From: a virus
Taxonomy: Duplodnaviria > Heunggongvirae > Uroviricota > Caudoviricetes
DNA length: 64,000 nt
Virus record (IMG/VR): IMGVR_UViG_3300020057_001228
Location: 1-64,000 of that record
Strand: one strand, 5' to 3'
Part shown: one piece after another, positions 8,098-53,238 of the stretch
Numbering within the stretch: position 1 is the stretch's first letter
Layout of the letters: every line of letters begins with the position of its first letter
Program-made: the position numbers and the translations under genes
Notes under the pieces: generated by a model
Database searches by the model: none
The model's input: the letters and a program-made list of their open reading frames with translations, nothing else
What the model was told of the DNA's origin: nothing

Positions 8098-8367
8098 TTA
8101 TGCGAACTGTTCACGGGATGCTTCTAGAGCATCACCTTCGGCTTGGGCTTTGTCATCAAGGTATCGCTGCGTCTTACGACGGTACAACTGAAGAGTTCTC
8201 TCCAGCTGGTCTACCTTCTTCACCAGATGATTGATGGTTACTTCATCTTCTTCATAGGCTTCGACTAACGCAATGACCTCTAAGGTCCCCTCTATCAACT
8301 CACCCTCATAACTAAGGAGGATGCTATCAGCTACTTTTAGGGCCTTGCATAGGTCAGCGTTATTCAT
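8098..8367 (-). CDS. hypothetical acidic protein (89 aa)
   Basis: Minus ORF, coiled-coil-like. Confidence 0.4.
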   Translation of the reverse strand: MNNADLCKALKVADSILLSYEGELIEGTLEVIALVEAYEEDEVTINHLVKKVDQLERTLQLYRRKTQRYLDDKAQAEGDALEASREQFA

Positions 8368-9016
8368 GAGTCCAGTCTATCGAAGCGATGTCTTTGCTAG
8401 CTAAGAATGCGTTTGCCTTTGAGAAGGGCTTAGACCCAAAGAAGCCACTATTTGCCGAATAGGGACTAGGGTGGGCTGCTTTAACAGCGTATTGCCCTTG
8501 TGGTGTGTACGGGAGTTTGTTTTGAGCGTGCTTACCAAAGAGTAGATAGACTACTGGTCTGCCAGAGTCACCCAAGGCTTTGATAGTCGCATCAACTAGG
8601 AAGTCCCACATACCTACATGAGATGCAGGTTTATGGATCTCTACAGTTAGACTGCTGTTCAATAGGAGTACACCCTGCTTAGCCCACGTGATAAGGGTAC
8701 GATCTTTAAGTTTGTCATCGAGATCGTGGTACACCTCTCTGTAGATATTCGCAAGAGACGGAGGCAGACTCTGATCCGCATTCACAGCAAAGGCTAGGCC
8801 GTTTGCTACACCAGGCGTATGGTAGGGATCTTGGCCTTGTAGAAGTACTTTTACATCTTCGAAGTCTGTAAGATGATAGGCACGTAAGATGTTCTCCTCT
8901 GACGGAGCTATATGCTTACCAGAGTCTCTGATACCTTGTAGGTTATCTTCGATCCTCTGTTGTGTACCCTCAGGCAAAGCTTTAAGCCAGCCAGGTGGTA
9001 AGATGTTCTGCGTCAT
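8360..9016 (-). CDS. ung: uracil-DNA glycosylase, family 1
   Basis: GQDPYH water-activating motif and HPSPYS (HPSPLS-type) motif. Confidence 0.85.
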   Translation of the reverse strand: MTQNILPPGWLKALPEGTQQRIEDNLQGIRDSGKHIAPSEENILRAYHLTDFEDVKVLLQGQDPYHTPGVANGLAFAVNADQSLPPSLANIYREVYHDLDDKLKDRTLITWAKQGVLLLNSSLTVEIHKPASHVGMWDFLVDATIKALGDSGRPVVYLLFGKHAQNKLPYTPQGQYAVKAAHPSPYSANSGFFGSKPFSKANAFLASKDIASIDWTHE

Positions 9017-10897: not shown

Positions 10898-11382
10898 CTA
10901 CCCCATACGTTGTACACTGTCTTCTCTTTAGACTTAGCGTAGTCGATACAGTTAGTGGTACCGCCAGGTCTACCAGACCATAGAGCTAGGATGATGTTGG
11001 AATGATCAACGATCCAGATGTTTCGGATCTGAAGCTTCTCACCAGAGTATCCACCGGACGAGGTATAAGCTACCTCAGCGTACTCACATAACTCAACGTG
11101 TCTACGCAGCCAGTAGGGACCCCAATTGCTACCGTGGCCCTCGAAAGGTATGGCAGCTACTAAAGATATACTTAGGTTCTTAGCTGCTTGAGCTAGAGCC
11201 ATATCCCAACCCAAAGCCATACCACTGATGACTTTGGATGGGGCAAGACTTTCTAAAGACTTAGTAGCAAGAGCTACCAGCCTGTCAAACACGAGATCCG
11301 AATAAGGATCAATGGTCCCAGGAGGGATTAGACCGCCTGGTCTATGTCCCGTCCCGCCCAGTATCAGAGTCTCTTGTGACAT
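10870..11382 (-). CDS. DUF1273/YoqJ-like (SLOG-type Rossmann) protein
   Basis: LILGGTGHR...ISGMALGWDMALAQAA...AAIPFEGHGSNW resembles YoqJ-family signature. Confidence 0.5.
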   Translation of the reverse strand: MSQETLILGGTGHRPGGLIPPGTIDPYSDLVFDRLVALATKSLESLAPSKVISGMALGWDMALAQAAKNLSISLVAAIPFEGHGSNWGPYWLRRHVELCEYAEVAYTSSGGYSGEKLQIRNIWIVDHSNIILALWSGRPGGTTNCIDYAKSKEKTVYNVWGSWAEHSGLF

Positions 11383-12580
11383 TCATCCTCTGCTGTATCT
11401 CTTTTAGGAAGCCTAGAGGGTCATCAACATGCTCGATGGCAATCTCTTGCACATGAGCCATGCTTAGGCCAGTATCATCAGACCTCAACATGCCACCCTT
11501 CTTATCTGGATAGAAACGTTTGTACATCTCCATCACCTGATATGAGTTAGCGTTGCTGAGTTCCATCTTGATATCAGCTCTACCTGGACGTATTAATGCA
11601 GGGTCTAGCTTCTCAGGATGATTTGTAGTCATCACAAAGATCCTACCCTCAGGTGCACCTAGTCCATCGATAGCGTTGAGTAGACCACCAAAGCTGATCT
11701 GCTGGTGTTCCTTGTTGGTAACTACACGTCCCTCAAAGATGGTATCGATCTCTTCGAATACCACGATAGAGTTCTCGTTAGTTGTAGCCACGATGTCCAT
11801 TAGCTTAGCGTCTGTGAGTTCCTGGTCAGCTAGGTTCACGATGTGAACATCAGCTAACAGGTGAGTAGCCATGACGAGGATAAGAGAACTCTTACCATTA
11901 CCAGGTTCACCATGTAGTAGGTAGCCACGCTTCCAGGGTATACCCATCCGTAGGTACCAGTCTCTACGTCTCTTGAATGTATCCAGATCATCCAGAATGC
12001 TCTGCATCTGTCCTTCTTTAAGGACTAATGTCTCAGGTGGTCTGAATGATTTAGCGCACGCGTCGGACCAGTGGTAGCCATTGTAGGCCATTACCTGGAT
12101 GCTAGTCTTCTCGCTGACTCTATGAGAACGATACATGTCCAACACCAAGTCATAGACCATCTGACGTGTTCCACCAATCGTTGATAGACTGATAGTTTCG
12201 ATCCATGCATTGTGTTTCAGTCCTGACGTAGCACTCTTCTCACGTGACCTGACCATCCAGAAGAATCTTCCCTTGTAGGTGAAGAAGTGGAAGCCAGGTG
12301 CTGGAGATAGTTTGATGATGGGGTCAGCTGCATCAGAAGGACCAGAGATAGCCGTGATAGTCACAGCCTTGTTCTTGTCTGTACGGATGTTCTGGTCCAT
12401 CCAGCTTTGCATCCAGTAGAAGACGTTATCCTGGTTCGTGATATCGATAGTGGTGATGAATCTGTTACGGCCTATACCAGCTAGATTGCTAAGCGTATCC
12501 TTAGCTGAACTAAGAATTGCATTCAGCACGACAAGAGCTGCACCACTAGTCAGGAGTGTATTGCTGAATGGATCGATCAT
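11342..12580 (-). CDS. BCS1-like AAA+ ATPase
   Basis: GIPWKRGYLLHGEPGNGKSSLI (Walker A), IVVFEEIDTIF (Walker B) with BCS1-N-like N-terminal region. Confidence 0.8.
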   Translation of the reverse strand: MIDPFSNTLLTSGAALVVLNAILSSAKDTLSNLAGIGRNRFITTIDITNQDNVFYWMQSWMDQNIRTDKNKAVTITAISGPSDAADPIIKLSPAPGFHFFTYKGRFFWMVRSREKSATSGLKHNAWIETISLSTIGGTRQMVYDLVLDMYRSHRVSEKTSIQVMAYNGYHWSDACAKSFRPPETLVLKEGQMQSILDDLDTFKRRRDWYLRMGIPWKRGYLLHGEPGNGKSSLILVMATHLLADVHIVNLADQELTDAKLMDIVATTNENSIVVFEEIDTIFEGRVVTNKEHQQISFGGLLNAIDGLGAPEGRIFVMTTNHPEKLDPALIRPGRADIKMELSNANSYQVMEMYKRFYPDKKGGMLRSDDTGLSMAHVQEIAIEHVDDPLGFLKEIQQRMNVTRDSDTGRDGT

Positions 12581-26632: not shown

Positions 26633-26682
26633 ATAGCGTCCTCTCTACTCTCTAGGCAGTGATGCCTGTCTAATGGTGTACT

Positions 26683-26754
26683 GGGGGTGGCTGGAATTGA
26701 ACCAGCGACCAACGAATTATGAGTTCGCCGCTCTAACCACTGAGCTACGCCCCC
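26683..26754 (-). tRNA. tRNA-Met/fMet/Ile2 (CAT), no encoded CCA
   Basis: RC GGGGGCG-TA-GCTC-AGTGGTTA-GAGC-G-GCGAA-CTCATAA-TTCGT...GCTGG-TTCAATT-CCAGC-CACCCCC-A (one acceptor mismatch). Confidence 0.75.
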
Positions 26755-26901
26755 ACGAATATTAAAGACAACAGACCAAGTAGCGCGCCTGCCTGTTGCC
26801 CATTGATCCGGCTAAACATCTACAGCTTACACGCCTTCATCCATAGACATCTTTTTTGGGTGATCTGGAGGCGTAGTGCCTCTCCCGCAGCCAGATTGCT
26901 T

Positions 26902-26978
26902 TGGTACCCCGTACTGGACTCGAACCAGTGACCGTGGGATTAGAAATCCCATGCTCTATCCAGCTGAGCTAACGAGGC
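26902..26978 (-). tRNA. tRNA-Arg (TCT), CCA-encoded
   Basis: RC GCCTCGT-TA-GCTC-AGCTGGATA-GAGC-A-TGGGA-TTTCTAA-TCCCA-CGGTC-ACTGG-TTCGAGT-CCAGT-ACGGGGT-A-CCA. Confidence 0.8.
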
Positions 26979-27315: not shown

Positions 27316-27927
27316 CTAATCCTTTGGGAACAACGCGTTCCAGAGACGCTTGGCCAGGCCAGGTCCCTTCTTGTTGGATTTGTGCATTCTCTTGTTGGCC
27401 ATCGGACGAACCGATACGGCATGATCCACACCACCGTAGATCAACGGATCCACTTCCACACGGACGATGGTGTCTTGGTTGATGTACATGAACGGGTGGA
27501 TCGGGGTCTCTTCACCTGACCGCTTGTCGACCAGAGGCTTGTCTTTCGCACGCGAGGACAGGCCAGTGGACTCCACCTGCAGATCATAGCCCTTGACCAG
27601 CAGCTCGCAGGCCGGGTGATCGTAGCCGAGGTGGATGTTGGACTTGATCTTGTGGGTGAAGGGTTGCAATGCCCAGTCACCATCGATGTCCAGAACGTCA
27701 GGAGTGCTGACACAGTACACGTCCACCAGAGCAGACATGTTGGTCTCCCACTCACTCACGTGGAGCACCTTGACGACGTACTTCTTCAGCACGACACCAT
27801 GACCTACGGGAACGACTTGTTGGATGGCATCGGTCTGCTGTTGCACAACCTCAGCCGCCTTCGTAACCGCCCCACCCATGTAGGTGGGAGCAGAAGCGGG
27901 GATGACACTGATCATATCGCTGTCCAT
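27316..27927 (-). CDS. hypothetical protein (203 aa), first gene of high-GC island
   Basis: Clean ORF; GC shift begins here. Confidence 0.5.
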   Translation of the reverse strand: MDSDMISVIPASAPTYMGGAVTKAAEVVQQQTDAIQQVVPVGHGVVLKKYVVKVLHVSEWETNMSALVDVYCVSTPDVLDIDGDWALQPFTHKIKSNIHLGYDHPACELLVKGYDLQVESTGLSSRAKDKPLVDKRSGEETPIHPFMYINQDTIVRVEVDPLIYGGVDHAVSVRPMANKRMHKSNKKGPGLAKRLWNALFPKD

Positions 27928-28994: not shown

Positions 28995-30215
28995 TCAGTG
29001 GATAAACATTGCAGTCATCACGCCGGACATTCCTGTGTAGTAGATCAGCACTGGGCCTATCATGGAGACCATGAGAGCTTGATTGGGTACAAACCACTTC
29101 TTGGCTTGTGAACTGATTAACCAGGCAGAAACGAATACGATAAGCCCACTCACCCCGCACGTGTACCAAATGGTAGACACGGTCCAGGCGAACAGACCCA
29201 TCGCTACAATCTTTTGTGGAACCTGGCGGATGACCATTCTGTAGGGATCATGGATCCTGTTCAGAACAGCCGTACCCGCCCATATGCCTAACATCATGAC
29301 GATGAGGCATATCATAGCTCCAAAGACATCCACAGCTGGGGCTGCTTCTGCTACTGCAGCTGCTACACCAGACCGTGTACTTCCGATAAGAGTAAATGAC
29401 AGCAAAGCAAACATGTTGTTGCTGGCATCCCCTGCAGACCCCAGCAGTAGCATCTCTTCTTCGTCCATATCACTATGGCGTGCCAGAGACACTAGACTGC
29501 TGGTGCCTACACCGGCGAGGAAGCCTGTCACCATGCCCAGAAACGCTCCTGTTGGGGAGGCATCCGTGTCATCGTTCCAGTCATTCCTACGATCCGCTTG
29601 GGGCTCCCTGGAAGCCTTTGAAGTCATCATGCCATATGCAGCAGGAGCCATAAACAATCCGCCCAGCAAAGGGAGCATTGTCCACGGTGATCCTACCATC
29701 GCTGGGATATTGAAGGTCATGAACCCTAATAGCCCAGCACACAGGCAAATGACGACAGTTCGTATCGGTCGCGAGGACTTACCTACAGTGATCAGTATTA
29801 CTAATCCCAGCACATAAGGACTGACTACCTTTACGATTCGATTGATACCACCTGCGGCATCTAACCCCAGAAGGGCTAGAACAACGAAGATGATTCCAAC
29901 AAACAGGATCATGAAGGCTGACTGATGAACAGCATCCTTATGAAGCCTGACTACTGCCTGACCGAAGCCCATATGGGCGAGTTTGGTAGCTACGTCACTA
30001 TTTGCCAGCATATCGTTGCTGACAGGTTGATAGGCCGCATGCAGAATACTCAGCACACTTCCCATACCAACACACATAGCTGCCGTAGCGATGGACCCAT
30101 CACTCCCTAAGGAGAGCCATGGTAACACCATCATAAGAATAAGAGCCGCGTGAACACCTGGGAGCAGGCTCAGGAGGCTTATAACAAAGCCTAAGCCCAC
30201 TCCTACGATGATCAT
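28995..30215 (-). CDS. polytopic membrane protein (about 10-12 TM), tentatively TctA/DUF112-like transporter
   Basis: Many hydrophobic helices with Gly-rich G-x-x-x-G-x-G repeats (VTGFLAGVGTSSLVSLA); start taken at MIIVGVGLGF because upstream part overlaps next gene. Confidence 0.5.
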   Translation of the reverse strand: MIIVGVGLGFVISLLSLLPGVHAALILMMVLPWLSLGSDGSIATAAMCVGMGSVLSILHAAYQPVSNDMLANSDVATKLAHMGFGQAVVRLHKDAVHQSAFMILFVGIIFVVLALLGLDAAGGINRIVKVVSPYVLGLVILITVGKSSRPIRTVVICLCAGLLGFMTFNIPAMVGSPWTMLPLLGGLFMAPAAYGMMTSKASREPQADRRNDWNDDTDASPTGAFLGMVTGFLAGVGTSSLVSLARHSDMDEEEMLLLGSAGDASNNMFALLSFTLIGSTRSGVAAAVAEAAPAVDVFGAMICLIVMMLGIWAGTAVLNRIHDPYRMVIRQVPQKIVAMGLFAWTVSTIWYTCGVSGLIVFVSAWLISSQAKKWFVPNQALMVSMIGPVLIYYTGMSGVMTAMFIH

Positions 30216-30294
30216 CTCTTGACTCCCATGAATGCGAAGTACAAGACTCCACACATGAGAACAAAGCCCCCAACCATCATTCCATATGCCATGA

Positions 30295-30900
30295 TCATGA
30301 CCACGCCTCCACGATGAATATACCGTTGGGCATACGATACCCCTTGAGGGTGGAGCTTCGCATGACTTCATCTATCCACGTCTCCTGAACAAGTCCGTTA
30401 AAGACCCGTCCGTTGGCTACGAATTGGATGCTACGGATTCCCTTTGCAGAGACTCTTGGTAGCTTTATGATTTCATCAGTGCGAAACTCCACGCGGGTAC
30501 TGACTCCGCCAGGCTCAATCCCCTTGCTGTAGACGATGCCACCAGCTGGTAGGAGAAGGCGGAAGTCATTCTCTGATTGGAGGGTTACAGCCTTCTCACC
30601 AAGCATCTTGCCGGTGATAGAGACGTAAGCCCCGATGTGAGGGATACCAATCCCTAATGCTGGCCCTATGTAGGCTAGGACTTGCTCGTTGTCCACCTGC
30701 AGGGTTAGTACCTTGCCAGCTTCACGAGTCATCACAGCCTTGATCACAGTGCCATTGAAGGTAACCAGGCCAGGCTGAAGAGACGTCAAAGACATCCCAT
30801 CAACATGCTTGGGTACAGAGTATTGCCTATATGGCTCTCGGAGAGCTGAAAGGCCCATGAGGAGGATTAGCACGACTGCTATTTTGAGCATTGGGGCCAT
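30295..30900 (-). CDS. secreted protein (201 aa; signal peptide MAPMLKIAVVLILLMGLSA)
   Basis: N-terminal signal-like segment. Confidence 0.5.
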   Translation of the reverse strand: MAPMLKIAVVLILLMGLSALREPYRQYSVPKHVDGMSLTSLQPGLVTFNGTVIKAVMTREAGKVLTLQVDNEQVLAYIGPALGIGIPHIGAYVSITGKMLGEKAVTLQSENDFRLLLPAGGIVYSKGIEPGGVSTRVEFRTDEIIKLPRVSAKGIRSIQFVANGRVFNGLVQETWIDEVMRSSTLKGYRMPNGIFIVEAWS

Positions 30901-33204: not shown

Positions 33205-33516
33205 GGTAAGCTCTCTTTCTTTTGTTCCTGAGGTCAGTATTACCGTATGGTAGCTCTGCGCTCTCGGCCGCAGCAGGCCGCTTGTCTCAACTATGTGGGG
33301 TTAGGCGTATCAGCCTGTAGCACCCACCTCTGAGAACAAGAATCATCTATTGGTATGCTGCATTAGCACACCGTATCAACAATGATCATCTACTGGTAGG
33401 CAGCATTCGCAGCATTAAGGTAAGTTCGAGAGCGGGTGGCGCTCTGAGGCACAGTCAAGAATAAAGGGAGCTTTCGCTCCCCCTATTCTCAGTTAGCTCG
33501 CAGCAAAGCTACGATC

Positions 33517-36500
33517 TTACCACTCGTCTTCACCCCACGACACGTCATCGTCCTCTTGTGCCTCAGTGTCCATCAGGTCACCGATCAGCGTGTTCACCGT
33601 ACCGAGCTGCTTGCTAACCAGCCGGCAGAGGTTGTAGAGGAATGAATCATCGAAGCCATGAACCCGAGCCGATTGCTCCATCTCATCGCTGGCAACGATG
33701 ACACAGTCAGCAACAGCCTGGGACAGCTTCTTACGACCCAGCATCCATGCAACACGGAACAGCGGAGTCAGCATGTGGTAAGGCATTTCCTGACCGTACT
33801 TATCGTACACAGGAGCCTGCACAGTGGCTTCATCAGGTGCACCATGCTTGATGCTGCGGTTCAGGTGGTTGCCCACCTTGATGGCATGAGGGAGAAGGAT
33901 GTCGCCACTGGACTTGTAGCACTTCACCTCATTCATCGTGACCCGCAGGTTGGACATCATGCCGGTAACCACGTCGGTATCCCAGAGAGGCCAGATCCAG
34001 CTCTGCATGAACTTCTTGCAGGACTCACCAACTGGCTTGCCAGCGAGACCTTTGTGCTCATACAACCATGCGCCCAGCATCATCATACGAGGATTGGTCA
34101 GACCCAGTGCGTACTGGATAGAACCACCCTCCATGAGACGATAGGCAGTACCAGTCCACCACGTGTTGGCTTCAACGCCTTCACGGATAGTTTCAAACCA
34201 CTTGTCAGCGGTCATCTTCTTGGACTTGGCGATCATCTTGTCCGCGGTGTTATTCGGGGACACAGCCTCACTGAACATCAGCGGCTCATAGACCCTAGTC
34301 CCATCACTGAGGACTTCCTTGAGGGTCTCGATGTGCTCAGCATCGTTGCCAGGCCCGTAGGTAGCCAGGTTCATGTCACCCTTGGGCAACAGGGCTTCCA
34401 GCTCCACACGCAGCTCAGCAGCGATGTCACGAGTACCAATGTTCGTGATGGGGAAGATGCAACCAGTGTCACCATCAAAGTCACCCTGGTTAACACGACG
34501 CCACTTCATCTCGTTGGCCATCATCACGTGCAGGTTGACCTTATCGTTTAGCACGATAGTGGCAACGTAGCCCACGATAACGGGATGGCGCAGCACGTAC
34601 ACAGCCTTACCGTTGAGGTCAGCGACATTGCACTTGAACTTACGGGCGAGCCGCTTGGCAATCCGTGAGTCCGGGTGGATATGGATCTCTTCCATACCAA
34701 TGCCACGAGAAGCAACCATCTTACTGGTCACACCCCAACGAGTACCGTAGACCCGACCGAAGCCACCACTCTTGGCGAGCTTAGCAGCATCAATCTTGAC
34801 GGACTGCACCAGACCAGCAACGCTGTCAGGATTAGCAGTGACCAGCTTGAGACGCAGCGCAGGGTCTGCCATCACACGCACTAGACGTGCAACAGTCTCA
34901 CCCAGCCCAGTGAGGCCAGAACCCAGGCCATCAGGCGCCGTTGCCTGCAGGACCTTATCAGCATCAATAGCTGCTGCCAGCACACCATTGACGATGATAT
35001 TAACACCCTGAGGATACAACTCCTTGACCTTCTCCAACAGTTGGACATCGGTCATCGCAGGAGTATACTCACCATGCAGGTCGAGTACATCATCACGCTG
35101 GAGCAGCAGGTTAGTACCCAAGAGCAGGTACAAGAACTGTTCACCTGTAGCAATCTTAGCTGCATTGGGGAATGATCCCAAACCAGCCAGATAGCCAAGC
35201 AGATGAGTACGCCGCACCATGTCGGGCACAACGTACTGCTTCAGCAGATCCTTACCAGCCTTGGTGAAGCCCAGGAAGAGGATCTGGTACAGCGTCATTG
35301 CTGCACTACCCACGTTCTCCTGAACGCTGGAGCTCTCAATGAGGAACGTAACCTCACCCAGGATAGCGTTGTCATCCACTGTAGTGATAGTGCAGGTAGC
35401 ATCATCAAACGTGAACTTAGCCGCATACTCAGGCTTGTCGTAGATCTCCTTGGTCGTAGCGTACACAATGGGGTTGTACACACTGCTAACCTCGACACGA
35501 CCACGACCAGTCTCCTTGAAGCGCTTGCGAAGCTGCTTGGAGGACTTGATGAGACCGTCGCCAATGTGCAGGCCTTTGAACACCTGTCCATTGATGAGGA
35601 CCTGCACACCAGCAGCTTCGTTGGTCTGCATCATAGCTTTGACAGGTCCACGACCCTTGGCTGCACCCTTATCAGTAGCCTCGATCGTCACCGTGAGCAC
35701 GAATTCGTACTCCCCTGCAACGTTCTTGGAGGCACCATGCAAGCGCATGTTCTTAACCACCTCGATGACACGACCCTCAACAGCACCATCATCGGAAGAC
35801 CAGTTGATGATATTGCCATTGAAGTCAAGCACCGGTACCTTGACGTTGTCTTCGGGTTTAGCCTTAGCAACTTCGACAAGAGCCCCATTGGCCCGTTCGT
35901 CTGCCAGGTGAGCGATGGTGTTACCATCAGCATCAGTGGAGAACGTGATCAGATCGCCAACTGCAACCAGGATATGGGAGTTCTTGGCTTCCATGAACGC
36001 CATCTCGTGATCAGCAGCACTATAGCGGTGGCTACCACCGATGGTAACCAAGCGCTTACCAACAGCCTCATCGAGGATCTCAGCACCGATGTGAGCCTGC
36101 CCACACTGAGAGATAGGAGATACAGCATCAATGACACACGGGACAGTCATTGATCCGCAGTGAGACGCAGCAGAGCTCTTGAGCAGCCCCTTGATGTTGC
36201 TACCTGCGAACTCGATCTCAGTACCCACCAGCTTAATGCCGAGAGGTCCACCATCCGTAGCGAGGTCCGTGTAAGGGATACGCAACGGGAAGCTACCACG
36301 GTTGTCAGGGATGTACCACGCGGTGGCATCTAGAGCATCCATATAGCGGCAGATCTCCACAACGTTGGGGCGATTGCCACTCAGAGAACCACGACCAGCG
36401 TGGACCTTGCCACCACGGTCCATGAAGAGACCAACCACCCCAACGGAGTACTTGGTCTTAATCAGCAGACCATCCTCATCGAGCTCGTCACGCTCACGAG

Positions 36501-37227
36501 CATCAGGACCAAGAGCCCCAGTGAACCCGAGCAGCGCACCCACAGCGTACTGAGCAGCCTTAGTCTCAGCGTGCATGGTGAGCACAGCCAGCATGATTTC
36601 CATGAACTCCTTAGGACCCTTCAACCCAGCGATGAGTTGTGGAGCAATCCCCCACTGATCCTCGGCCAGGTTAACGATAACCGTACTACGAAGCTGGGCA
36701 GTGTTCATGTAGATCTCATCATCGGAGACCCACTTGAACGTGAAGCTGGCACCGAAGGGCACCTTGACGATGAAGGTATCCTTGTCATCCTCGTCAGCCT
36801 CAACCCGATATCCCAGCTCACTGAAGATGTGTTGAGCCGTCTCAGAGCCGTTCGTGAGTTCACAGAACTTCAAGAACTCTTTCATCTTCATGGAGATCTG
36901 AACAGTCTCCTCGGACACGATCTTACGAGACTCTGGCTGAGCCTGGTGGATCTCCTTGAGCGCGGAGGCTTCACCCTTCTGGAGCTTAGCACCCTTACCA
37001 ACCACAACACGCACGTGAGGCATGTTGAACAGTGTAGTGAGAAGGATCTGCTTGTAGGCAGAACCAGTGTGACCGCCAGGGTTCCAGGAAGACAAGTCTT
37101 CCTTCTCGATGACAGCACTAACAGGGATACCGTAGTAGTCAGCAACGAGATTGAGGTCTGCGCATTGATATGCGTAGACAGCGAGACCGGTGTAGTTGAT
37201 ACTCATGTGATGTTGTCCTTTCAGCAC
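33517..37227 (-). CDS. 1236-aa protein with RNAP beta-prime-like double-psi beta-barrel catalytic motif (putative two-barrel RNA polymerase-like protein)
   Basis: LRHPVIVGYVATIVLNDKVNLHVMMANEMKWRRVNQGDFDGDTG (aa about 878-922; DFDGD at 34468-34482) parallels beta-prime NRAPTLH...KAIQLHPLV...NADFDGDQ; upstream RLHGASKNV resembles beta GRHGNKGV. Confidence 0.45.
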   Translation of the reverse strand: MLKGQHHMSINYTGLAVYAYQCADLNLVADYYGIPVSAVIEKEDLSSWNPGGHTGSAYKQILLTTLFNMPHVRVVVGKGAKLQKGEASALKEIHQAQPESRKIVSEETVQISMKMKEFLKFCELTNGSETAQHIFSELGYRVEADEDDKDTFIVKVPFGASFTFKWVSDDEIYMNTAQLRSTVIVNLAEDQWGIAPQLIAGLKGPKEFMEIMLAVLTMHAETKAAQYAVGALLGFTGALGPDARERDELDEDGLLIKTKYSVGVVGLFMDRGGKVHAGRGSLSGNRPNVVEICRYMDALDATAWYIPDNRGSFPLRIPYTDLATDGGPLGIKLVGTEIEFAGSNIKGLLKSSAASHCGSMTVPCVIDAVSPISQCGQAHIGAEILDEAVGKRLVTIGGSHRYSAADHEMAFMEAKNSHILVAVGDLITFSTDADGNTIAHLADERANGALVEVAKAKPEDNVKVPVLDFNGNIINWSSDDGAVEGRVIEVVKNMRLHGASKNVAGEYEFVLTVTIEATDKGAAKGRGPVKAMMQTNEAAGVQVLINGQVFKGLHIGDGLIKSSKQLRKRFKETGRGRVEVSSVYNPIVYATTKEIYDKPEYAAKFTFDDATCTITTVDDNAILGEVTFLIESSSVQENVGSAAMTLYQILFLGFTKAGKDLLKQYVVPDMVRRTHLLGYLAGLGSFPNAAKIATGEQFLYLLLGTNLLLQRDDVLDLHGEYTPAMTDVQLLEKVKELYPQGVNIIVNGVLAAAIDADKVLQATAPDGLGSGLTGLGETVARLVRVMADPALRLKLVTANPDSVAGLVQSVKIDAAKLAKSGGFGRVYGTRWGVTSKMVASRGIGMEEIHIHPDSRIAKRLARKFKCNVADLNGKAVYVLRHPVIVGYVATIVLNDKVNLHVMMANEMKWRRVNQGDFDGDTGCIFPITNIGTRDIAAELRVELEALLPKGDMNLATYGPGNDAEHIETLKEVLSDGTRVYEPLMFSEAVSPNNTADKMIAKSKKMTADKWFETIREGVEANTWWTGTAYRLMEGGSIQYALGLTNPRMMMLGAWLYEHKGLAGKPVGESCKKFMQSWIWPLWDTDVVTGMMSNLRVTMNEVKCYKSSGDILLPHAIKVGNHLNRSIKHGAPDEATVQAPVYDKYGQEMPYHMLTPLFRVAWMLGRKKLSQAVADCVIVASDEMEQSARVHGFDDSFLYNLCRLVSKQLGTVNTLIGDLMDTEAQEDDDVSWGEDEW

Positions 37228-40808: not shown

Positions 40809-40818
40809 TCTTTTTATG
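40777..40818. terminator. bidirectional intrinsic terminator (GGGGGCTTAGGCCCCC flanked by T-tracts on both strands)
   Basis: AAAAGAAAAG upstream and TTTTCTTTTTAT downstream on plus strand. Confidence 0.55.
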
Positions 40819-41857
40819 CGTAAGCTTCCTCCCACTCGGAGGCGTATGCGCCTCCAACCCATGGGTCTACTACCTCATCGACTACCCGGTCGTAGCGGGT
40901 AAGCGGCAATCCCATTGCCTCTGCCAGATCTCTGGCGAACTGGGGTGGATCTTCTCCTAGATACACCACAGATTGGTATACAGGGCTCTCTATAAAAGCC
41001 TCGATATACCAGTCCTCTGTCATGGAGTCGGACATCCGGTCGATGTCCCCCCAATAGCAGACTTTGACCAGACCCAGCATCCTGCTGGATATCCGCCCCT
41101 TGTCTGCTGTGCACGCGTCCCCCGCGTACGCCTTTAGGAGGACTGTCTTCGTGGTATCTACCACGAGCCCTACCTTGGCCACCTCCCCGGCCAGTCCCAG
41201 GGACTGGCCGAAGCGAAACGCCTCGGCACTTACCGGTCGTCCCGGCGCTGCTTCGAAAGCAGCGATGTCCGCCACGGTCGCCCCGCGCCCGTAGGCGCCC
41301 ATCCACCTTACGGTGGTGGGATGGGAGGACCTGCTCTCTTTCCCCACCTTTTCCCAATACGGAGCTGCGGCTGCCAACGCAGCCTCAGCTAGGTGTGCCT
41401 CCCAGAGGAGGATTTCCTCTGGCCACATTACTATGTCCAGTAATGCGGCCGTTTCCGCCGCCTGGGCGGCGGCCCAGACGTCTGCGCCCAGTATCACCTG
41501 GGTGTATACCCCGACCGCGGTCGCGACCGGGTAGTCGCCGGCGAGGATGCCGGCGATGTCGAGCCCCGCTTGCAGGGTCTCTGCTACCTCCCGGTAACGG
41601 AGCCCCTGCTTGACAAGCCCGTAGGCTTGTCCCGACAGCTCGGGGCAGAGCTCTACTATGTGCCCAGCCGCCTCTAGGGTGGCGAAGTCTGTGGTATTAA
41701 CCCACAGGATGGCGGCCTCTGCCGTCGTCAGACGACGGTTGAGGCCAGACGCCTTGAGGGCGTCCTTGAGGACACCCGCCTCACGCTGGATCCAGAGTGC
41801 GCCGCACTCGGCGCCCCGGGCGGCGATGAGGGCGGCAATAGTGTTCTTCTTGGTCAT
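40814..41857 (-). CDS. Ala-rich hypothetical protein (347 aa), highest-GC gene in window
   Basis: Clean ORF; starts MTKK after same GAAAGGAATGCATCATG leader as 40448..40657. Confidence 0.55.
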   Translation of the reverse strand: MTKKNTIAALIAARGAECGALWIQREAGVLKDALKASGLNRRLTTAEAAILWVNTTDFATLEAAGHIVELCPELSGQAYGLVKQGLRYREVAETLQAGLDIAGILAGDYPVATAVGVYTQVILGADVWAAAQAAETAALLDIVMWPEEILLWEAHLAEAALAAAAPYWEKVGKESRSSHPTTVRWMGAYGRGATVADIAAFEAAPGRPVSAEAFRFGQSLGLAGEVAKVGLVVDTTKTVLLKAYAGDACTADKGRISSRMLGLVKVCYWGDIDRMSDSMTEDWYIEAFIESPVYQSVVYLGEDPPQFARDLAEAMGLPLTRYDRVVDEVVDPWVGGAYASEWEEAYA

Positions 41858-44436: not shown

Positions 44437-47400
44437 TTACTGGTTTACTGTGCTGTTATCCACTGTGTCCCTTAGATTCGTATACGACAGGTCTCCATCT
44501 TCGCCGTCTGCAAAGGTGATGTTAGCCAAGTTGCCAGGCGAACCATCGATGTAGACTTCACTCCCATTTTGATCAACCAGTGAATTGACTTGAGTAAGAT
44601 CATCAGCCAGTCCTTCCATATATCCTGTAAGCATGTCGATTTGGCTCATAGCCCCCGCAGTGATATCTCCGAGTAGATCTTTAGCTTTCTTGGTAGCACC
44701 ACTACCCATCAACCTCTCAAGAGGCTTCTGTGCCAGTACGGCAGCGAAGGTGGAGGCAACTCCACCGACGACGGTCCTACTCCACACGTTCCTACTAGGT
44801 ATCCTTAGAGCAGCAGCAGCTACTCCTTCAGCCATGATACCAATACCCATAGAGGCAGCCATGATTCCAGCTGCGTGTAGCTGTTTGTCATGAGAGTTGT
44901 TTAGGAGCATACGAGTCATAGCCTGTGGTGAGTTCATAGCTATACCATAAGCAGCACCTTCCGCTATGTCTTCGTAACGTACCTTCTGGTGGTTGATAGC
45001 AGCTCCTAGAGCAGATCCTAAACCACCACCAAGTCCACCGATCATTACGTTCAGTGTGGTAGCACCTGATTGATTTCTAGGGTTATGAGGATCAGAACCG
45101 ATAGCCTTGTTCAACCTACCCTCTACCTTGTTCCAGAAGAAGTTAGTAGGATCGCCACTCCTGATCTCGAAGCGTCTCCGTAGGCCCTCTTCGATACCAG
45201 CAAAGTTCTGTAGTAGCTTCTCTAGCCCTGGCGCATCGTGGTCACCTGTTAAGGCGGTACCAGACTGTACACCAAAGACCATAGACTGCCGTGAGAGCTT
45301 ACGCCTCTGGTTATCACTTAGAGAGTTGTTAGCAGCATTCATCAGAGACTTCTCTGACATATCAGAGCTAGCACGCTGCTCAGCATACTTACTTAGCATG
45401 GTGCCTAGACCAGAGTTAGGATCCATAGCATTCATAGCAGCTTCTAGAGCAGGCATGGTGTGCTTGTCTGCCACCGCACGCTCTAGCAGGCTCTCTAGGA
45501 CTACTACGAGCTCCTTAGGGTGTTGTGCTAGATGAGGACGACCTGCTAGCTCCATGAGAGCTGTAGACTGTACAGATAAATCGAAGTGACTATTGTTCTC
45601 TATTGAGAACCTACCACCAGGACCTACCGTACCAGCGTGCTCACGAACACTCTCAAGGTACTGCTTCTTCTTACCCTGCACCTCAATGAATCTGTCTAGA
45701 ACAGCGAAGTCACCATCATCTACAGAGAACAGCTCGGTTAGTCTGTTCTGGAAAGCCTTCTGCATCTTGTACTCAAGAGAGCTGATCCTACCGCCACCCT
45801 GCTTTTTAGCTGTAAGGTCAGGAACACCAGTCTCTTCATGTACGAACATAGCAGTGGCGTGCTGGTGTACGAACTCAGTGAACCCCAGGTACATGCTGCT
45901 ATTCTTACCCATGGTCTTCTTGAGCTCAGCAAAGGTAGTGAACCTATCTGCTGTACCAAGCTTGGACTCATCAAGGGTCTTACGGAAGTCCATGGCGATA
46001 TCGTCAGCAATGATCGTGTTCTCTAGAGTATGGAGATCGATCTTCTGACCCTTACCAAACTTCTTGTTCAGCATGGCATCCATGTTGTATTCGCTGAACT
46101 CTTTAGCAGCTACTAAGGTGAAGCGCTTCTGAGCTTCCTTCATACCGTTGTGGCTTAGCTGACGACGTTTCTCAGCGTCTGGGTAGCTCTCGTGCTTATC
46201 TCCGTGCAAAGTATCATCTAACACATCTCCGATAAGATTACGTAGCACACCATCGACTGGCATGTTGTCACTGATCATCGCGTGTAGGTAGGAAGCAGTC
46301 TTGGCACCAGTGATGTTAGCCATAGCTGCCTTAGCACCACTACCACCGTGATCTTTAGAGAGTGCACCTAGCTGAGCTACAGTGCTGATACCCTTAGGTT
46401 TCATAGCGTCACGAGGCATCTGCGCTAGGGTCTTGATGAACCAGGAGAACTTCTCCTTCTTAGTTAATCCACCTTCGTTACGTACCTTCTTTGACCCATC
46501 AAAGTAGGTCATACGGTACTTATCATCATCTAGCCCACTCAGCACGTTAGTCATCGTCATCATGTCGTATGACACGTTGAATGCTTTACCGATGATCTCA
46601 GTACCAGCTACACCTACGTACTCCTGCATGAACCGGAAGTGCTCTTTGTTAAGAGCTACAGGGTTGGATACGTTCTGAGTAAGCCCACTTAGGGCCCTGT
46701 CAGTAACAGTTCTGGAGATATCCATGTGCATCTTACGACGTGCTTCTGGAGAGACGTCCTTAATCTTGTTTGTGCTAGTCTTATCCTCGTGAGCCTTAAC
46801 CTCAGCTAGATAGTCCATGAAGTAGCCAGCACTACCGTCGTAGAGCTCACGTACCTGTTGGATTACATGTTGAGATCTGTATAGGATGTCAGCCTGCTCT
46901 GTAGTGTTCTTATCAGCAATAGCTTTATCGAACGCCATGCTCAAACCAGGTACTGAGGCGTACTTCTCAGCGGAACGGACTAGCAGACGACCATTGTTAG
47001 CATCAGCTACAAACTGGTGCATAGTGTGGTACTGCTTATCAATTCCGTCAGCACTGTAGTTCTTGAGGAAGTTGATATCCTGTTGAGTTAGGCCAACAGG
47101 TACGTTCTTACCAGTGGCCCTAAGAGCAGCATTCTTCTTCACACGCTCTCTCAGAGCCTCACGTGTGCGCTTCTTACCCTTTAGAGCTGTGTACTTACCA
47201 ACATCTAGGAAGGACGCTTGGTCTCCATCCCAGTCTCCAAGAGACATAGCCATAGCTGTCATGCTGGTCAGGATGATCGACTGGTTATCTTTGCCAGATA
47301 AGGTTATGTCACTCAGCTTGTTGAGATCCTTCAACATCCCGTACTCTTTCATGTTGAGTACTAGAGATGGAGCATACTCAGAACCTAGAGGAGCACCAGC

Positions 47401-50400
47401 ACGACCACCGTAGCTAAGCATGCCACCAGGACCAGTTATAGCCAGGTCAGCCATAACACTCTTAGCAGTCTGGTAGATATGTAGGTCGCTTACACCTTTA
47501 GTCTTACGCCTACCCTTAGGATCGTCTTTGAGCTTACGGCTCAACTTCTCCATCAAGGTGTCCATCGCCTCGTTGAGGCGGCCTTCCTTAATAGTAGAGA
47601 AATCTAGATCCTTCTGGGTTAACTTACCGTTCTCATCAGTTACCCATACGTTCTTAGCACCCTCATCATAGCGGTCTGTAACCTGCTTGAAGATACTACG
47701 TACGTGCTTATCTAGAGCTCCACGGAGAGATGTCTCATCCATGTAGACTAAGTCAGACCTGAGGACAGGCTTGTTCTTTACAGTGTCCCGCTGCCCTGTA
47801 CGTCTTAGCTTCTTGTACTCAGCTTTAGATATCGGCTTAAAGTCACCGTTATCCATGTAGACACCCTGTTGGTGATCGGCAACGCTCATGTAGAGCTTGC
47901 TGATGTCATCACTGATACCAACAGTCTCATAGAACAGATTGTCTACACCCTTGGCAAAATCCTTGCTACCAGGTAGAGCTTTATCTACACGCTTGGTGTA
48001 CTCCTGACGTACGTGATCGTAGAGGAACCGTTTGGTATCACGGACCTTCTTGTTGAAGACTGAGTCCCCGTATACAGCCATACCCATAGGAACGGCCATG
48101 TCTGTGACGGCCGTGACGGTGCTACCGGTAGACTTAAAGACACCATATAGAGCAGACACATAGTCGTTGCTTAGGTTGCTACTGTACCAGTCGTAGATCT
48201 TTTGAGTAGCATCAAGTAGGTAAGACAACTGCTTACCAGCTCTATCGGTGATACTAAGCTTCTTACCTTGCTCAGCAGCAGTAGATATATCCTGGAAGAG
48301 GCCAACTTCATCTGCCTGAATACTTAATACCCTCTGGAAGCTCTGTACGATATCAGCACCAGCACCACTACCACTCATTGCCTTCATAACATCGAAGTCA
48401 GGCATAGGGATCTTCACACCACCCACAAGTTCGACACTCATGCCGGAACCCTGAGGAGTGATGTTCAGCTCAGGCAGGAAGATGGTCTGTGCGCCTATAC
48501 CAGCCTTCTCAAGGGCTGTTAGGAACGCTGGAGTATCAAGTGTACGGAGATCACCTGTACCCACCGTTACGGTCTTACCAGAGGCTCTCTTATCCCTGAG
48601 AGTCTGGGCGATGTTACTACTATCCTTGATGAGAGCTAAGCTCTTTACCTCAGTAGCTTTAGTAAGGCTATCAACACCTGTCTTAAATCCCTTTTCGAGT
48701 CTTGCTCTACGATCCACATCTGTTACTAACTTAATCTTGTCCCATTTACCCTGCAGGGATAGGATACGATCTGCCGTACCTTCGTGAAGCTCGTGCAGCT
48801 GTTTCGCCAGGGAGCCCACTTCAGACTCCAGCCCTAGTTCTGCTATAGATGCAATCATCGCAGCACTGATGGTACCAAAGGCGCTGATACCCTGTTTACG
48901 TCCACCAACCTCACCAAAGCCCGTGGTGAACAGAGATGCAAGGTGAAGCTGACTCTGCTGAGACTTGTTCATACCATCGAACATGATACCGAACTGGTGC
49001 TGGTTCTCGGAGAAGTTCATGTAGGTCAGGAACTTAACCTCAGGCCTACGTGAGAGCACGGTGGTATTCGTATTCATAGCGTTAGGTGCAAACGTAGGGA
49101 TCATGAACTTCTCTTTCGAGATTAGGTCCATCATCTTCTTAGTCTGCGCATCGTCCAAGTCACCAGCCTGGATCTGCTTCTTATGCTCATGCATAAAGAC
49201 GGAGATCTCGTTAGACTGCGTGTCTACGGGTCCCTTTACGTGCGCATCCCAATTAGCCATACGGTGCTCAAGCTGAGAACTCATATGGAACTGTTCCCAC
49301 AGATACCAAGCCATCAAGGAAGCTGCTTGGTGTTTTACGTTACCAACGTTAAGAGCCTTACGACCCTTCATGTTGCTAAGGTCAGTCTCTACGCTCTCGA
49401 ACAACTTCTTGATCTTAGCGTGTGCGTTCTCTCCACTGCTAGCAATGTTGTGGATTAGATCCCTAGCCATCTCCTTACTACCGTAGTTACCCTTGTGAGC
49501 ATCTTCACCCAGCTCTGTGTAACCACCTTCCTTCTTCTCTTGAAAGTCCTTCATCACACGCTCTAGGAATAGATCTGATCCACCCATCCTCTCAATACCT
49601 GTCCACATCTTCTGTAGGAAGCTTGTAGAAGGATTAGCGGTCATCAATAGGCCAGCACCTGTCTGCATAAGCAGATCACCGTGCTTGATGTTCGACTTGT
49701 TAACGATAGTGTGGAAAGACTCAGCACTAACACTACCCATACCCATGTAGCTCTTCATGGCTTCTGTGGAATCAGTGTTCATCAGGTAAGACTTATTAAC
49801 GGCAGCTGCGAAGCTAGCACCAGTCTCAATGAGGTGCACACCTTTTGTGGTCATGCTCCTCATACCACCCTCGGTGGGAGATGCTACCTTAAGGGCTACG
49901 TTTACGATGTACTTACGTGGATCAGCAGCACTACGTATAAGCTCAGGTGCTCTAGAGATCTGAGAGAACCCACCGGATGCAGTAAAGGACCAGGCAGGGT
50001 TATCAATGACCAGATTAACCTTGCGCTTACCGAACCTGCTGTGGATCTCTGCTTCACCTAGATCGATCTTCTCAGAAAGGATCTTGGTCCCTTCCTCATG
50101 CAGCTTCTGTAGAGCTTCGATAGACCTAAGGTCATGGTTCTTAGCATCTAGCTGGAAGGATACTACCTGCTCACGTACCTGGAAGACGCCATCGTATGCC
50201 GCTGCGTTAGCCCTGATAATATCGTGGTTAACACCTGAGCCAATCTCCAATAGAGACATCGTCTTGTACATCTTGATAGCTGGGTCCTCAAGTAGGTTAC
50301 CCATCTTATCGAATGCATCCTGTGTCTGCATTGGAGCATAGTACAGCTCAGAGTCTACAAGACTACCAGTGCCCTTCTTAGCACCCTCAATCCAGGTAGC

Positions 50401-53238
50401 CTGATCCCAGATGCTAGAACCGAAGACGTTCTTCAAACGCTGAGAGGTCTGCCACAACTTACCAAACGGTGTGAAGAACGTGAAGTCTTCTCTACCATCC
50501 TCACTCACAGTGGTCATGGTTGTGTTTCTGAAGGCTTGAGACCTGTACTGTTGACCTACCTGACGTCCCTTCTGATAGCCCTTACCAGTATCCTGGAAGC
50601 TGTAGTCGTCTACCTCGTAGTTGTTGTTCCTGAAGGCGATCTTAGCCTGTCTCTCAGGACGTAGGATATCGAATGGATCCTTGGTCTTCTCGTATACCTG
50701 GTACTGGTGATCCTTACCTGCGTAGGCGTGCCTACCAAGATCGGACCCCTCAAAGGTACCCATAATGTCACGTAGGAATTCCATACCTCTACGCTTCATA
50801 AGATACTTCGTGGAAGTACGGGACATCATCTCTTCGATACGAGTCTCAATCTGAGATTCGGTAGGAGGCTTGCTGAGAGCCATGTTGAGCTCTACGATAG
50901 CTTTGGAACGGAGTTCTTCTCCGATTACCTTCTCGGCTATAAACTCATGTGTGAGCTTCATAGCGCTACCGATTACTTGTTCGTAGCCAATGTGCTCACT
51001 ACTCCTATAGGCACCGTCTTGACGAGTTAAAGCTGTGACTCCACGAATAGTCTTCTGGAACGCAGGTAGGTAGACACTGGTCTCACCTGGCTGGTGGAAC
51101 ATCTCGAATGTTACGAGGTTCTCAACAGCAGTACCCTTGAACCTAGCTCCAATGGAAGCTACGCTTGAGTAACCACCTGTACCCTTGCTGATCTTAGCGT
51201 GTAGCCCAGCAGCGTTTAGCCTATCAGATACACCAGACAATGCCTTCAGTGTTGAGTCTAGTAGACCCCACCTGGCTAGTACTGGAGTGCTGTACAGAGA
51301 GATGTTCTTATCCATCATGTTCTCTGTTGTAGCAGCAGCCATTACACTGTGCTGGCCTAAACCATACTGACGTTCAATCAGCTTGTAGGAATCATGCAGA
51401 TCAGGGATATCATCCGAGGTAGCCATGAAGGCACCCTCTCGGTTCCTACGTGCATCATCCATTGCAGCAGAACGATCAGACGCATTGGCAGAACCAATGA
51501 TTTGTGTCATACGTCCACCAGAGTCCTGATGGAAGAAGCCCTTGGCGTGCTGGAACCGACCGAAGGTATCAGCTAGTCTGATGTTTTTACCTAGGCCGAG
51601 GATCTCTGTCATGGCTGCTAAGTCGCGACCAGTTCCCTTCAGGTCACGCATCACACCACCTTCGTTCTTATCGAAGTAGGCTTTGAAGTCTGCGTTGTTG
51701 GACCAGTTCTTAGTCTCCATACCCTCCATGAGTAGTGTGATCTCACCACCCTGGTTAGCAAAGCCCTTCATCTGGCTTAGAAGCCTATCGAAGGTGCTTG
51801 TACCACCATTGCTGGTTGATACGTTGATTAACGCAGTCATACGATGGCCTGTGAGGTCACCTGTCTGCTGGAGGATCTTACCGACCTCCTTGTACATATC
51901 CATACCATCCATGAAGAAGCCAGCTCCCTGGCTCCTAGTCAGTCTGGAGGTACCTGTAGGATCGTGCATGTAGCTACTGAAAGCCCTAGCACCATCTACC
52001 ATGCGCTTGAAGATGGCTTCTCTCTGTTGGAGCTGACTACCACCTGCAGCCCGTCTCCACTTAGAGTCAGGGTCTAATCCACGGGTAACGATAGTATCGT
52101 AGTCTGCATACTGGGTAAGCTCGATGTTACCCAAGCTGCTAGCGTACACACCATCACGCATAACAGGACCAAGAGCACCCATGGTGACGTTGGCTGTAGA
52201 CATGAGGAAGGCAGCATTACGCCAGTTGCTAGAGCTCGATAGGTTAGCACCAATGAACTTGTAGTGAGCAATCTGCGAGAAGGTATCTTCGCTGTTACCG
52301 AAGTTGTGTGAGTCCCCAGGTGTAAACCAATCTAGGTTAACGTTGTTCAGGCTGCCATTGGTAGAACGTATAGGACTAAATGCACCCTTAGCCTCAGGTA
52401 GGTTAGCAGCGCCAGTCCTTAGGTTGTTAGCTACGTTCCTACCAAACTCACGTAGGGTAGCCATAGTTAACGCATTACGTGTAGCAATGGACGTAGGTGC
52501 GCTCAGGGTCATATTGACATGACCACCAGCTTCCATAACCCTACGTTGGGCTAGCATAGTCTCAGCTAAGATACTGGTGTTCTCAAATTGGAACATACCG
52601 ATATCTAGACTGCTAGTTGCCTTCTGTAAGACCTTAACAAACAGTGAAGCATGATCATGGGATGCCAGAGACGTTACCATCTCAGGTACTCGTAGACCCT
52701 TACCACCTGTAAGAATCTCGTATTCCCTGAACGACGTCATAGTTGTGTGCATCAAGCTGTTGGTAACGAACTCGTGGTTCCAGCCTTCAAGACGGTTCAG
52801 ATCCTTCCAGTTGGCGTCTGGCGTGCCCACCAAGGTGTGTCTGATAGCATTTAGGACAGTATCCACCTGCCTACCCATTTCAGTGGGTCTTAAGGAGGTG
52901 CCAAGGTCAAACTGTTTTGGTTCTAGACCGGACTTAATCCTGCGTAGGCTATCTGCACGTGTACCAGTAGTATTGATGAGAGCATCCATGATCCCATCAG
53001 TCTTAGTCATCTGACCAAGGGTGTGGAATGGATCAATAGAGTGCTGCTGCTGTAGATCGTTAAAGATACTCAGGGTGCGAGAATCACGCTCAGCAGTGTT
53101 ATCAGCTGCCTGGTGTGTCTCTGCTAAACTATCATCAGCGTTACGTGGTTGTAGTAAACCAAAGAACGGTTTGAGCCTAGCGGACTCCAAAGCATTCTTG
53201 GTGTTCGCCGTCAATCTTTGTAGATCAAAACTATCCAC
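44437..53238 (-). CDS. giant 2933-aa protein, putative virion-associated two-barrel (DPBB) RNA polymerase-like protein
   Basis: YAPSLVLN...[30 protein letters not shown] (DWDGD at 47221-47235, aa about 2002) parallels beta-prime RAPTLH...GKAIQLHP...[20 protein letters not shown] (about aa 559, nt 51536-51565) resembles beta GRHGNKGV; gene abuts virion module. Confidence 0.4.
   Translation of the reverse strand: [2933 protein letters not shown]

Follow-up and report, generated by a model that had tools for sequence, protein, structure and literature searches.

Only a handful of RNA polymerases (RNAPs) that unite both catalytic double-psi beta-barrels (DPBBs) in a single chain have, to our knowledge, been characterised: YonO, gp66 of a crAss-like phage, gp64 and gp96 of phage P23-45, and QDE-1. 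Such single-chain two-barrel enzymes are the minimal relatives of the transcription enzyme that all cells share. Structures of non-virion RNAPs (nvRNAPs) of this type are available for gp64 of the Thermus phage P23-45 and P74-26 gp62 (PDB 8F72 and 8F5M; Chaban et al., 2024, PMC10770324), and P74-26 gp62 is described by its authors as a close homolog of P23-45 gp64, a biochemically validated nvRNAP (PMC10770324). Here, we describe a candidate for this group from a stretch of 64,000 nucleotides (the window) that comprises positions 1 to 64,000 of the Caudoviricetes record IMGVR_UViG_3300020057_001228 in IMG/VR. The gene at 33517-37206 on the minus strand encodes a protein of 1229 amino acids (aa) that is very likely a two-barrel polymerase, and we assign a probability of roughly 0.78 to the reading that it is a working phage transcriptase, i.e. 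a single-chain two-barrel DNA-dependent RNAP. A first-pass annotation of the window had already proposed an RNAP-like protein at this position, and this proposal is now strongly supported by the invariance of the catalytic motifs and by a two-barrel fold in the structure model. In the proposed enzyme, the N-terminal half would contribute a beta-like barrel (DPBB-B) with the basic motif K517-x-R519-x-x-x-K523, and the C-terminal half a beta-prime-like barrel (DPBB-A) that is opened by R873-x-P875 and whose loop D909-F-D-G-D913 would bind the catalytic Mg2+ ions. The two barrels are predicted to face each other and thereby build the active site, and a long helix comes after them in the position of the bridge helix. 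The enzyme would transcribe part of the phage genome independently of the host RNA polymerase.

The catalytic motifs carry much of this assignment. All features of the gene are on the minus strand, and residues are numbered from the ATG start codon (numbering from an alternative GTG start is higher by 7). The DFDGD loop, D909-D913, was found at 34468-34482, exactly where the first-pass annotation had located it as part of NQGDFDGD (aa 913-920 of the GTG reading frame), and is predicted to be the Mg2+-binding Asp triad of DPBB-A. Upstream of it, R873-H-P875 (34582-34590), which falls into the stretch LRHPVIVGYVAT at 34558-34593, represents the R-x-P element at the opening of the beta-prime-like barrel. 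Its counterpart in bacterial beta-prime reads NRAPTLH. The protein passes the filter [RK]xPx{20,100}DxDxD of Chaban et al. At a distance of 390 residues before the Asp triad, within a segment rich in beta strands, K517-G-R519-G-P-V-K523 (35638-35658) forms the basic motif of DPBB-B, which reads AAKGRGPVKAM in the window protein and aKxRgxGKg in the family consensus, and has the character of a counterpart of the K..R...K(G) active-site motif in beta subunits. In E. coli beta, this motif consists of K1065...R1069...K1073-G, with the same R-to-K spacing as in the window protein. The sequence MRLHGASKNVAGEY (35707-35748), for which the first-pass annotation had suggested a resemblance to the beta DPBB motif, had to be rejected in this role, as it is variable and partly gapped in the family alignment and lies approximately 23 residues upstream of the conserved basic motif.

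HMMER, run exhaustively over 1.84 billion cluster representatives, yielded 34 relatives (25 at E<1e-10, 14 at E<1e-30), of which 12 are full length with 1081-1293 aa and 22-47% identity. The columns that are invariant among these 12 proteins include K517, R519, K523, R873, P875, D909, D911, G912 and D913. In the alignment of 34 sequences (22-48% identity), D-x-D-G-D is invariant in all 26 sequences that cover the position and K-x-R-x-x-x-K in 18 of 18, separate N-half subunits included, while R-x-P is kept in 25 of 26, the exception being P0024, in which the R is aligned out of register. By composition, DxDGD would be expected 0.027 times in a protein of 1236 aa and 0.077 times in the second DxDGD protein of the window, a giant of 2933 aa, and on its own the motif exceeds chance only weakly. 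A third copy, DIDGD at 27676-27690 in a 203-aa open reading frame (ORF) of unknown function (27316-27927, minus strand), is probably due to chance. An inactive or structural protein that merely retained DPBB domains, or a DFDGD without any meaning, would be compatible with this not negligible expectation, with the presumably meaningless DIDGD and with the occurrence of DPBBs outside polymerases (p97 N domain, expansins and formate dehydrogenases, among others). We consider such an explanation hardly credible and DFDGD to be above chance because the motif is invariant across 26 homologs at 22-48% identity and is placed within a confidently modelled RNAP fold.

An AlphaFold2 model of the last 1200 residues, built with the 34-sequence alignment, reached a mean predicted local distance difference test (pLDDT) of 86.3 and a predicted template-modelling score (pTM) of 0.87. 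In a Foldseek search against the PDB, the top 36 matches were all RNAP beta-prime and beta large subunits, including those of the nvRNAPs of AR9 and PhiKZ (best E 6.4e-4, probability 0.97-1.0). The overall fold resembles RNAP catalytic subunits beyond the single barrels, and DPBB entries were among the best matches. Conservation of the Asp triad in homologs and a double-psi beta-barrel in the predicted structure had been named beforehand as the two points on which the polymerase proposal could fail; both were found, and together they bear out the interpretation of DFDGD as a beta-prime-type metal-binding loop. The best-scoring structural neighbours were phage DNA-dependent transcriptases and the largest subunits of RNAPs from cells and viruses. 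The matches comprised (score and length of the match in brackets) P74-26 gp62 (8F5M; 12.8, 387), the P23-45 virion RNAP gp96 (8H2M; 12.1, 307), Pol I RPA1 (7OB9; 11.7, 353), vaccinia rpo147 (6RFL; 11.2, 343), archaeal A' (2PMZ; 11.1, 236), the largest subunit of Pol IV (7EU0; 10.8, 339), bacterial beta-prime (6EDT_D; 9.6, 340), crAss-like phi14:2 gp66 (6VR4; 9.4, 558), AR9 nvRNAP beta-prime (7S00_d; 9.2, 167), PolD DP2 (6T8H; 8.8, 278), QDE-1 (7Y7P; 8.6, 501), RDR2 (7W84; 8.5, 519) and PhiKZ nvRNAP (7OGP; 8.4, 170).

A two-barrel nucleotidyl transferase with another job might also be considered in view of QDE-1, RDR2 and PolD DP2 in this list. A QDE-1/RDR-like RNA- or single-stranded-DNA-dependent RNAP, a replication primase or a PolD-like DNA polymerase would act in replication or RNA amplification and not in gene transcription. 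We regard this as unlikely, since the top fold neighbours are phage DNA-dependent transcriptases and largest subunits of cellular and viral RNAPs, and in PMC10770324 and bioRxiv 2020.03.07.982082 all phage two-barrel enzymes that were characterised are transcriptases. DNA-dependent transcription of phage genes is the predicted role of the 1229-aa protein, because its nearest fold neighbours are phage transcriptases and gp64, gp96 and gp66 are reported to share this role.

In the model, DPBB-B extends approximately over aa 477-576 (35479-35778), with the K/R/K motif located within strands 488-499 (model numbering) of an all-beta segment. DPBB-A covers approximately aa 868-975 (34282-34605), and its DFDGD loop (model residues 880-884) is placed between strands and flanked by model strands 839-891 and 931-946. 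A helix of 34 residues with the invariant Y1022 (aa 1000-1033, 34108-34209; model helix 971-1004) is a candidate bridge helix on account of its place behind DPBB-A. It is followed by a segment with the conserved residues G1045, E1050 and L1054 and by two further helices, in the order expected for bridge helix and trigger loop. Just upstream of DPBB-B, at aa ~407-486 (35749-35988), marginal evidence points to a hybrid barrel of the biotinyl/lipoyl-like sandwich-barrel hybrid motif (SBHM) type, to which we also count MRLHGASKNVAGEY: the family profile gave weak yet consistent biotinyl/lipoyl matches there (E 0.0036-0.1), with Biotin_lipoyl_2 in 3 members. A barrel of this kind recalls the SBHM/flap position in beta.

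Besides the fused form, the family occurs as two separate genes. In approximately 12 relatives of 490-540 aa, the similarity is confined to the C-terminal half with the Asp triad, and in six of 620-690 aa to the N-terminal half with the K/R/K motif. The match ranges of these half-length homologs place the connector at which the N-half (~620-690 aa) and the C-half (~490-540 aa) are split at 35062-35181 of the window gene. In three loci (L005-L007), a gene for 646 aa is followed after 4 nt by a gene for 516 aa, and in L008 genes for 642 and 520 aa are separated by 11 nt, in each case with the N-half preceding the C-half. Wherever the contigs were long enough, the split halves were adjacent and in the order beta-like, then beta-prime-like. 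The split relatives represent the division of labour between beta and beta-prime, which the window protein unites in one chain.

The family is absent from the common domain collections. Neither the 1229-aa protein nor the giant had a meaningful match in Pfam, PHROGs, NCBIfam or PADLOC, and a Pfam search with all 34 members at E up to 1 did not detect an RNA_pol_Rpb1 or RNA_pol_Rpb2 domain, nor did NCBIfam yield one for the protein. Right-hand RNAPs of the T7/N4 type (PF00940-type palm and fingers) were not matched in Pfam or PHROGs either, and fold matches were to two-barrel enzymes only. Searches by tblastn and megablast against 50,697 phage records left the RNAP unmatched and the structural region unmatched at the nucleotide level, and a scan of IMG/VR by protein pattern found nothing. 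A word-indexed search of 5.8 billion proteins recovered only the protein itself and one relative, even with the 34-sequence profile, and phmmer and family-profile searches against all PDB sequences gave no RNAP match, only weak biotinyl/lipoyl-like ones. These results suggest a new sequence family of two-barrel RNAPs, which was not compared with the 23 family alignments of Chaban et al. and may be among them. The farthest members that we recognise are probably ORF65L of the Microcystis phage MaMV-DC and, by position and size, gp064 of Ma-LMM01. The closest relative of the window RNAP, P0002, and a relative of the giant, P0036, originate from the same Joint Genome Institute (JGI) sample. Several loci of the family carry, a few kb past the 3' end of the RNAP gene, a gene for a protein of ~405-412 aa without Pfam match (window 28995-30371, minus strand; L002 13189-14415; L003 10306-11526; L012 11183-12400; L005 11174-12412); gene size and position alone suggest conserved synteny, and the protein in the window has the appearance of a membrane protein with multiple passes.

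The frame at 33517-37227 is indeed uninterrupted and comprises 1236 aa when read from the GTG at 37227, as stated in the first-pass annotation, with the corrections that it lies on the minus strand and that its start is most likely further inside; the plus-strand frame contains many stops. The ATG at 37206 (MSINYTG..., 1229 aa) is preferred as start codon because an AAGGA ribosome-binding site (RBS) is located 9 nt upstream and because this start agrees with the database gene call P0001 and with the N-termini of homologs. The RBS belongs to a leader element, TGAAAGGA at 37216-37223 (minus strand), that is shared with the cassettes of small genes further upstream, and a hairpin with T-run resembling an intrinsic terminator lies 33 nt past the stop codon (33465-33484, minus strand). 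The gene thus has its own RBS and its own terminator, is surrounded by small genes of unknown function and lies 16 kb from the structural module; the database copy P0001 is found on a contig of 198.8 kb. GC content is raised over 32-37 kb as reported before, although the term high-GC island overstates a modest difference (0.53-0.57 versus ~0.48 elsewhere in the window). The GC maximum of the window (0.618, 41-42 kb) is caused by a 347-aa Ala-rich ORF (40814-41857, minus strand) that had no match in Pfam or PHROG.

The structural genes connect the window with cyanophages. It encodes a Mu-like portal, a scaffold and a major capsid protein on the plus strand, and its capsid and portal proteins share 29-32% identity with their counterparts in Ma-LMM01 and MaMV-DC, which infect Microcystis, and in a Microcoleus phage. 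The window phage is a distant relative of Ma-LMM01 and MaMV-DC. The genes Ma-LMM01 gp083 and MaMV-DC ORF84R, annotated as 'tail protein', match the window portal (PHROG portal; Portal_Mu in L010) and are probably mis-annotated portals. In the BFVD, the best structural match of the RNAP model was an uncharacterised MaMV-DC protein, A0A075BUT7_2 (E 2e-18, 897 aligned columns), which we infer to be the second half of ORF65L because half of 1677 aa is ~839. MaMV-DC ORF65L (1677 aa; L009 9225-14258, minus strand) contains ALKLRGLGKKL at aa 933 and NEGDADGD at aa 1352, i.e. the same two motifs as the window protein at similar spacing, and the family profile selected it from the 43-kb MaMV-DC region at E 1e-8 in a local database of 176 ORFs. 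Identity to the window protein is ~22% over 334 residues. ORF65L is additionally extended at the N-terminus by ~440 aa that begin with a basic stretch of low complexity and contain an HExxH motif (VIAHELVHH). The window protein lacks this extension, whose sequence suggests a fused zincin-like protease domain. The Ma-LMM01 genes of corresponding size and position are gp064 (1673 aa) and gp080 (3562 aa); in both phages, the counterparts of the RNAP and of the giant are annotated as 'hypothetical protein'. The family would thereby reach, distantly, into the phages of the toxic bloom-former Microcystis, a phage group of ecological importance that is thought to lack any RNAP. A literature search of incomplete coverage yielded no report of a phage-encoded RNAP in phages of the Ma-LMM01 type.

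The 2933-aa giant (44437-53238, minus strand), a candidate for a virion-delivered second polymerase, contains a single DWDGD at aa 2002 (47221-47235) and is encoded divergently from the portal, scaffold and capsid genes. MaMV-DC has the same layout, with the giant DxDGD protein ORF82L (3560 aa; GDFDGD at aa 2537) divergent from the portal gene, and P0036 likewise neighbours portal and capsid genes. Such a location next to the portal would suit a virion protein. GD[WYF]DGD and an upstream R...P align in these three divergent giants (P0036 with 36% and ORF82L with 23% identity), which exceeds what would be expected by chance, and BLASTP between the window giant and ORF82L gave E 2.7e-5 across the motif. 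Of the two DxDGD barrels proposed in the first-pass annotation, the motif is thus present in both proteins, whereas for the giant only the motif is shown: its AlphaFold2 model from a two-sequence alignment was unusable (pLDDT 33.8), and hhalign against the RNAP family returned a non-significant probability of 1.9-3.5%. In a direct BLASTP comparison of the two DxDGD proteins, which the same annotation had recommended, the motifs align at a non-significant E of 6.1. A profile of the giants from three lineages had zero matches to PDB sequences, and the window giant fails the strict RxP filter ([RK]xPx{20,100}DxDxD). KGRRKTKG, 94 aa before the DWDGD of the giant, was discarded as a candidate beta-like motif since P0036 does not conserve it. 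The giant also shows weak similarity to phospholipase D (PLD) at aa 484-610, with an E-value of 0.0012 that misses the Pfam cutoff, and, towards its C-terminus, hydrophobic segments rich in Gly and Ala that resemble membrane segments. A BFVD match, part of a protein from Ma-LMM01, carries the annotation PLD phosphodiesterase domain-containing.

Concerning the time of action, the 1229-aa enzyme would most likely be made after infection and act, as non-virion enzyme, on middle or late genes. Alternatively, it could be packaged into the virion, enter the cell along with the DNA and transcribe the earliest genes, in which case the giant would be an unrelated ejection, tail or lipid-acting protein with an incidental DxDGD. 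The latter scenario is improbable, since the RNAP gene lies far from the structural module among small non-structural-looking genes with its own terminator, and it is the giant and not the 1229-aa protein that adjoins the portal gene in three lineages. Furthermore, the top structural neighbour is a non-virion enzyme with clamp. In the transcriptome of Ma-LMM01, gp064 and gp080 were both assigned to the 'middle' class B5, after the early genes gp054-gp063 (supplement of PMC5780444), which places gp064 outside the late class, though gp080 is 'middle' too. The early genes gp054-gp063 are located just downstream of gp064. Between gp064 and gp063, 6.7 tandem copies of a 42-bp repeat are annotated (L013 10272-10552), a candidate regulatory or promoter array. 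The authors of the transcriptome study, the only one found, described all phases of infection as dependent on host sigma-70, did not find phage-specific motifs and left the origin of the three temporal classes open (PMC5780444). A phage-encoded RNAP would offer a directly testable answer to how these classes are separated.

The region upstream of the window RNAP gene contains repeated intergenic elements. Between 38190 and 42175 (minus strand), repeated cassettes frame each small gene: a GC hairpin with the terminator TTTCTTTTTGA is followed by a hairpin of 5-8 bp, then by TGAAAGGA and, 8-9 nt later, by the ATG. The hairpin proximal to the gene is variable in sequence and fixed in position, ending 3-4 nt before TGAAAGGA, and the GC hairpin with TTTCTTTTTGA constitutes a repeat family of 8 copies (D1). 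Terminator-like sites are clearly enriched (24 versus 8.1 +/- 2.9 in shuffled sequences), so that the dense terminators and repeated intergenic elements described in the first-pass annotation were recovered. All 10 matches to TGAAAGGR in the window are on the minus strand and within 32.1-42.1 kb (3.8 expected), while sigma-70-type promoters are not enriched in 32-45 kb (9 found versus 9.9 +/- 3.2 expected). The related contig L002 (1480-5230) shows the same cassette architecture with different stems, and there the TGAAAGGA element also precedes the homologous RNAP gene. The window RNAP gene itself has the TGAAAGGA leader and lacks the proximal hairpin; a 7-bp hairpin lies ~43 nt further upstream. 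The cassette hairpins could be promoters of a phage RNAP or 5' stem-loops of the RNAs. Hairpin promoters are known from N4-like phages. For biotechnology, the enzyme is a candidate orthogonal polymerase and the hairpin cassettes are candidate promoters.

By analogy to the precedent of P23-45, a pair of a virion RNAP (vRNAP) and an nvRNAP in this phage is plausible. More speculatively, and with considerable doubt on our side, cyanophages of the Ma-LMM01 type, together with uncultured relatives such as the present phage of 199 kb, might run a largely host-independent two-polymerase programme. In such a programme, the giant of ~3000-3500 aa would be an ejected virion RNAP with a two-barrel core too diverged for current tools that starts at the hairpin cassettes, and the 1229-aa enzyme (gp064 in Ma-LMM01) would take over for the middle and late genes. 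If true, this would overturn the published use of the host sigma-70 RNAP in all phases of Ma-LMM01 infection and establish a third independent vRNAP/nvRNAP pair after those of P23-45 and the jumbo phages.

Several points weigh against the interpretation of the 1229-aa protein as a phage transcriptase. Sequence similarity to any characterised RNAP was not found in Pfam, PHROGs, NCBIfam, PDB sequences or by tblastn against phages, structural identities are only 7-14%, and the Foldseek E-values against the PDB reach only ~1e-3. The juxtaposition of the K/R/K motif with the Asp triad and the assignment of the bridge helix are deduced from the model, and RNA synthesis, the template and promoter use are predictions as well. 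The K-to-K spacing of 6 in the basic motif is shorter than the 8 of bacterial beta. The connection to ORF65L is weak by sequence (21-27 bits) and leans in addition on the presumed identity of A0A075BUT7_2, and gp064 is taken as its counterpart by position and size only. Finally, the non-virion status is deduced from the gene position and the coarse transcriptome of a very distant relative.

Elsewhere in the window, the minus strand carries tRNA genes for Phe(GAA), Met(CAT) and Arg(TCT) and a fourth, weak tRNA-like Rfam match without ARAGORN call at 544-617; the other three sites are at 702-777, 26681-26755 and 26902-26978. Genes for an SPFH/Band-7 protein (4089-5024), a DnaJ-domain protein (5210-5821), a protein of the uracil-DNA-glycosylase superfamily (8360-9016) and a BCS1-like AAA ATPase (11342-12580) are also located on the minus strand and form a set that is unusual for the early/middle region of a phage.

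Compared with the nvRNAPs of P23-45 and P74-26, the window protein is only 12% identical to gp64 and gp62, with no match found at the sequence level, and it is much longer, with 1229 aa against 592 aa in the solved chain of gp62. A region of ~440 aa at its N-terminus and the hybrid-barrel-like segment lie outside the core that was aligned to gp62, and the phages differ in host lineage, which is cyanophage-like here, and in virion type. The second polymerase of P23-45, gp96 (PDB 8H2M and 8H2N), is a clamp-less virion RNAP fused to the tape-measure protein, whereas the window protein is free-standing; a fold shared between gp96 and the window giant was not demonstrable with the unusable model of the latter. 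The crAss-like phi14:2 gp66 and the eukaryotic QDE-1/RDR polymerases are also among the closest known systems. Relative to multisubunit RNAPs, the window protein is much smaller, and there is no sign of partner subunits of the alpha, omega or sigma kind. It shares with the cellular and jumbo-phage enzymes, including the AR9 and PhiKZ nvRNAPs that were among the top Foldseek matches, the same two catalytic barrels and the same motif logic. As in multisubunit RNAPs, its relatives also exist as two adjacent genes for beta-like and beta-prime-like halves, and the family thus adds to the two-barrel RNAPs a well-modelled member with both fused and naturally split forms, which may be useful for questions on the origin of the beta/beta-prime architecture.

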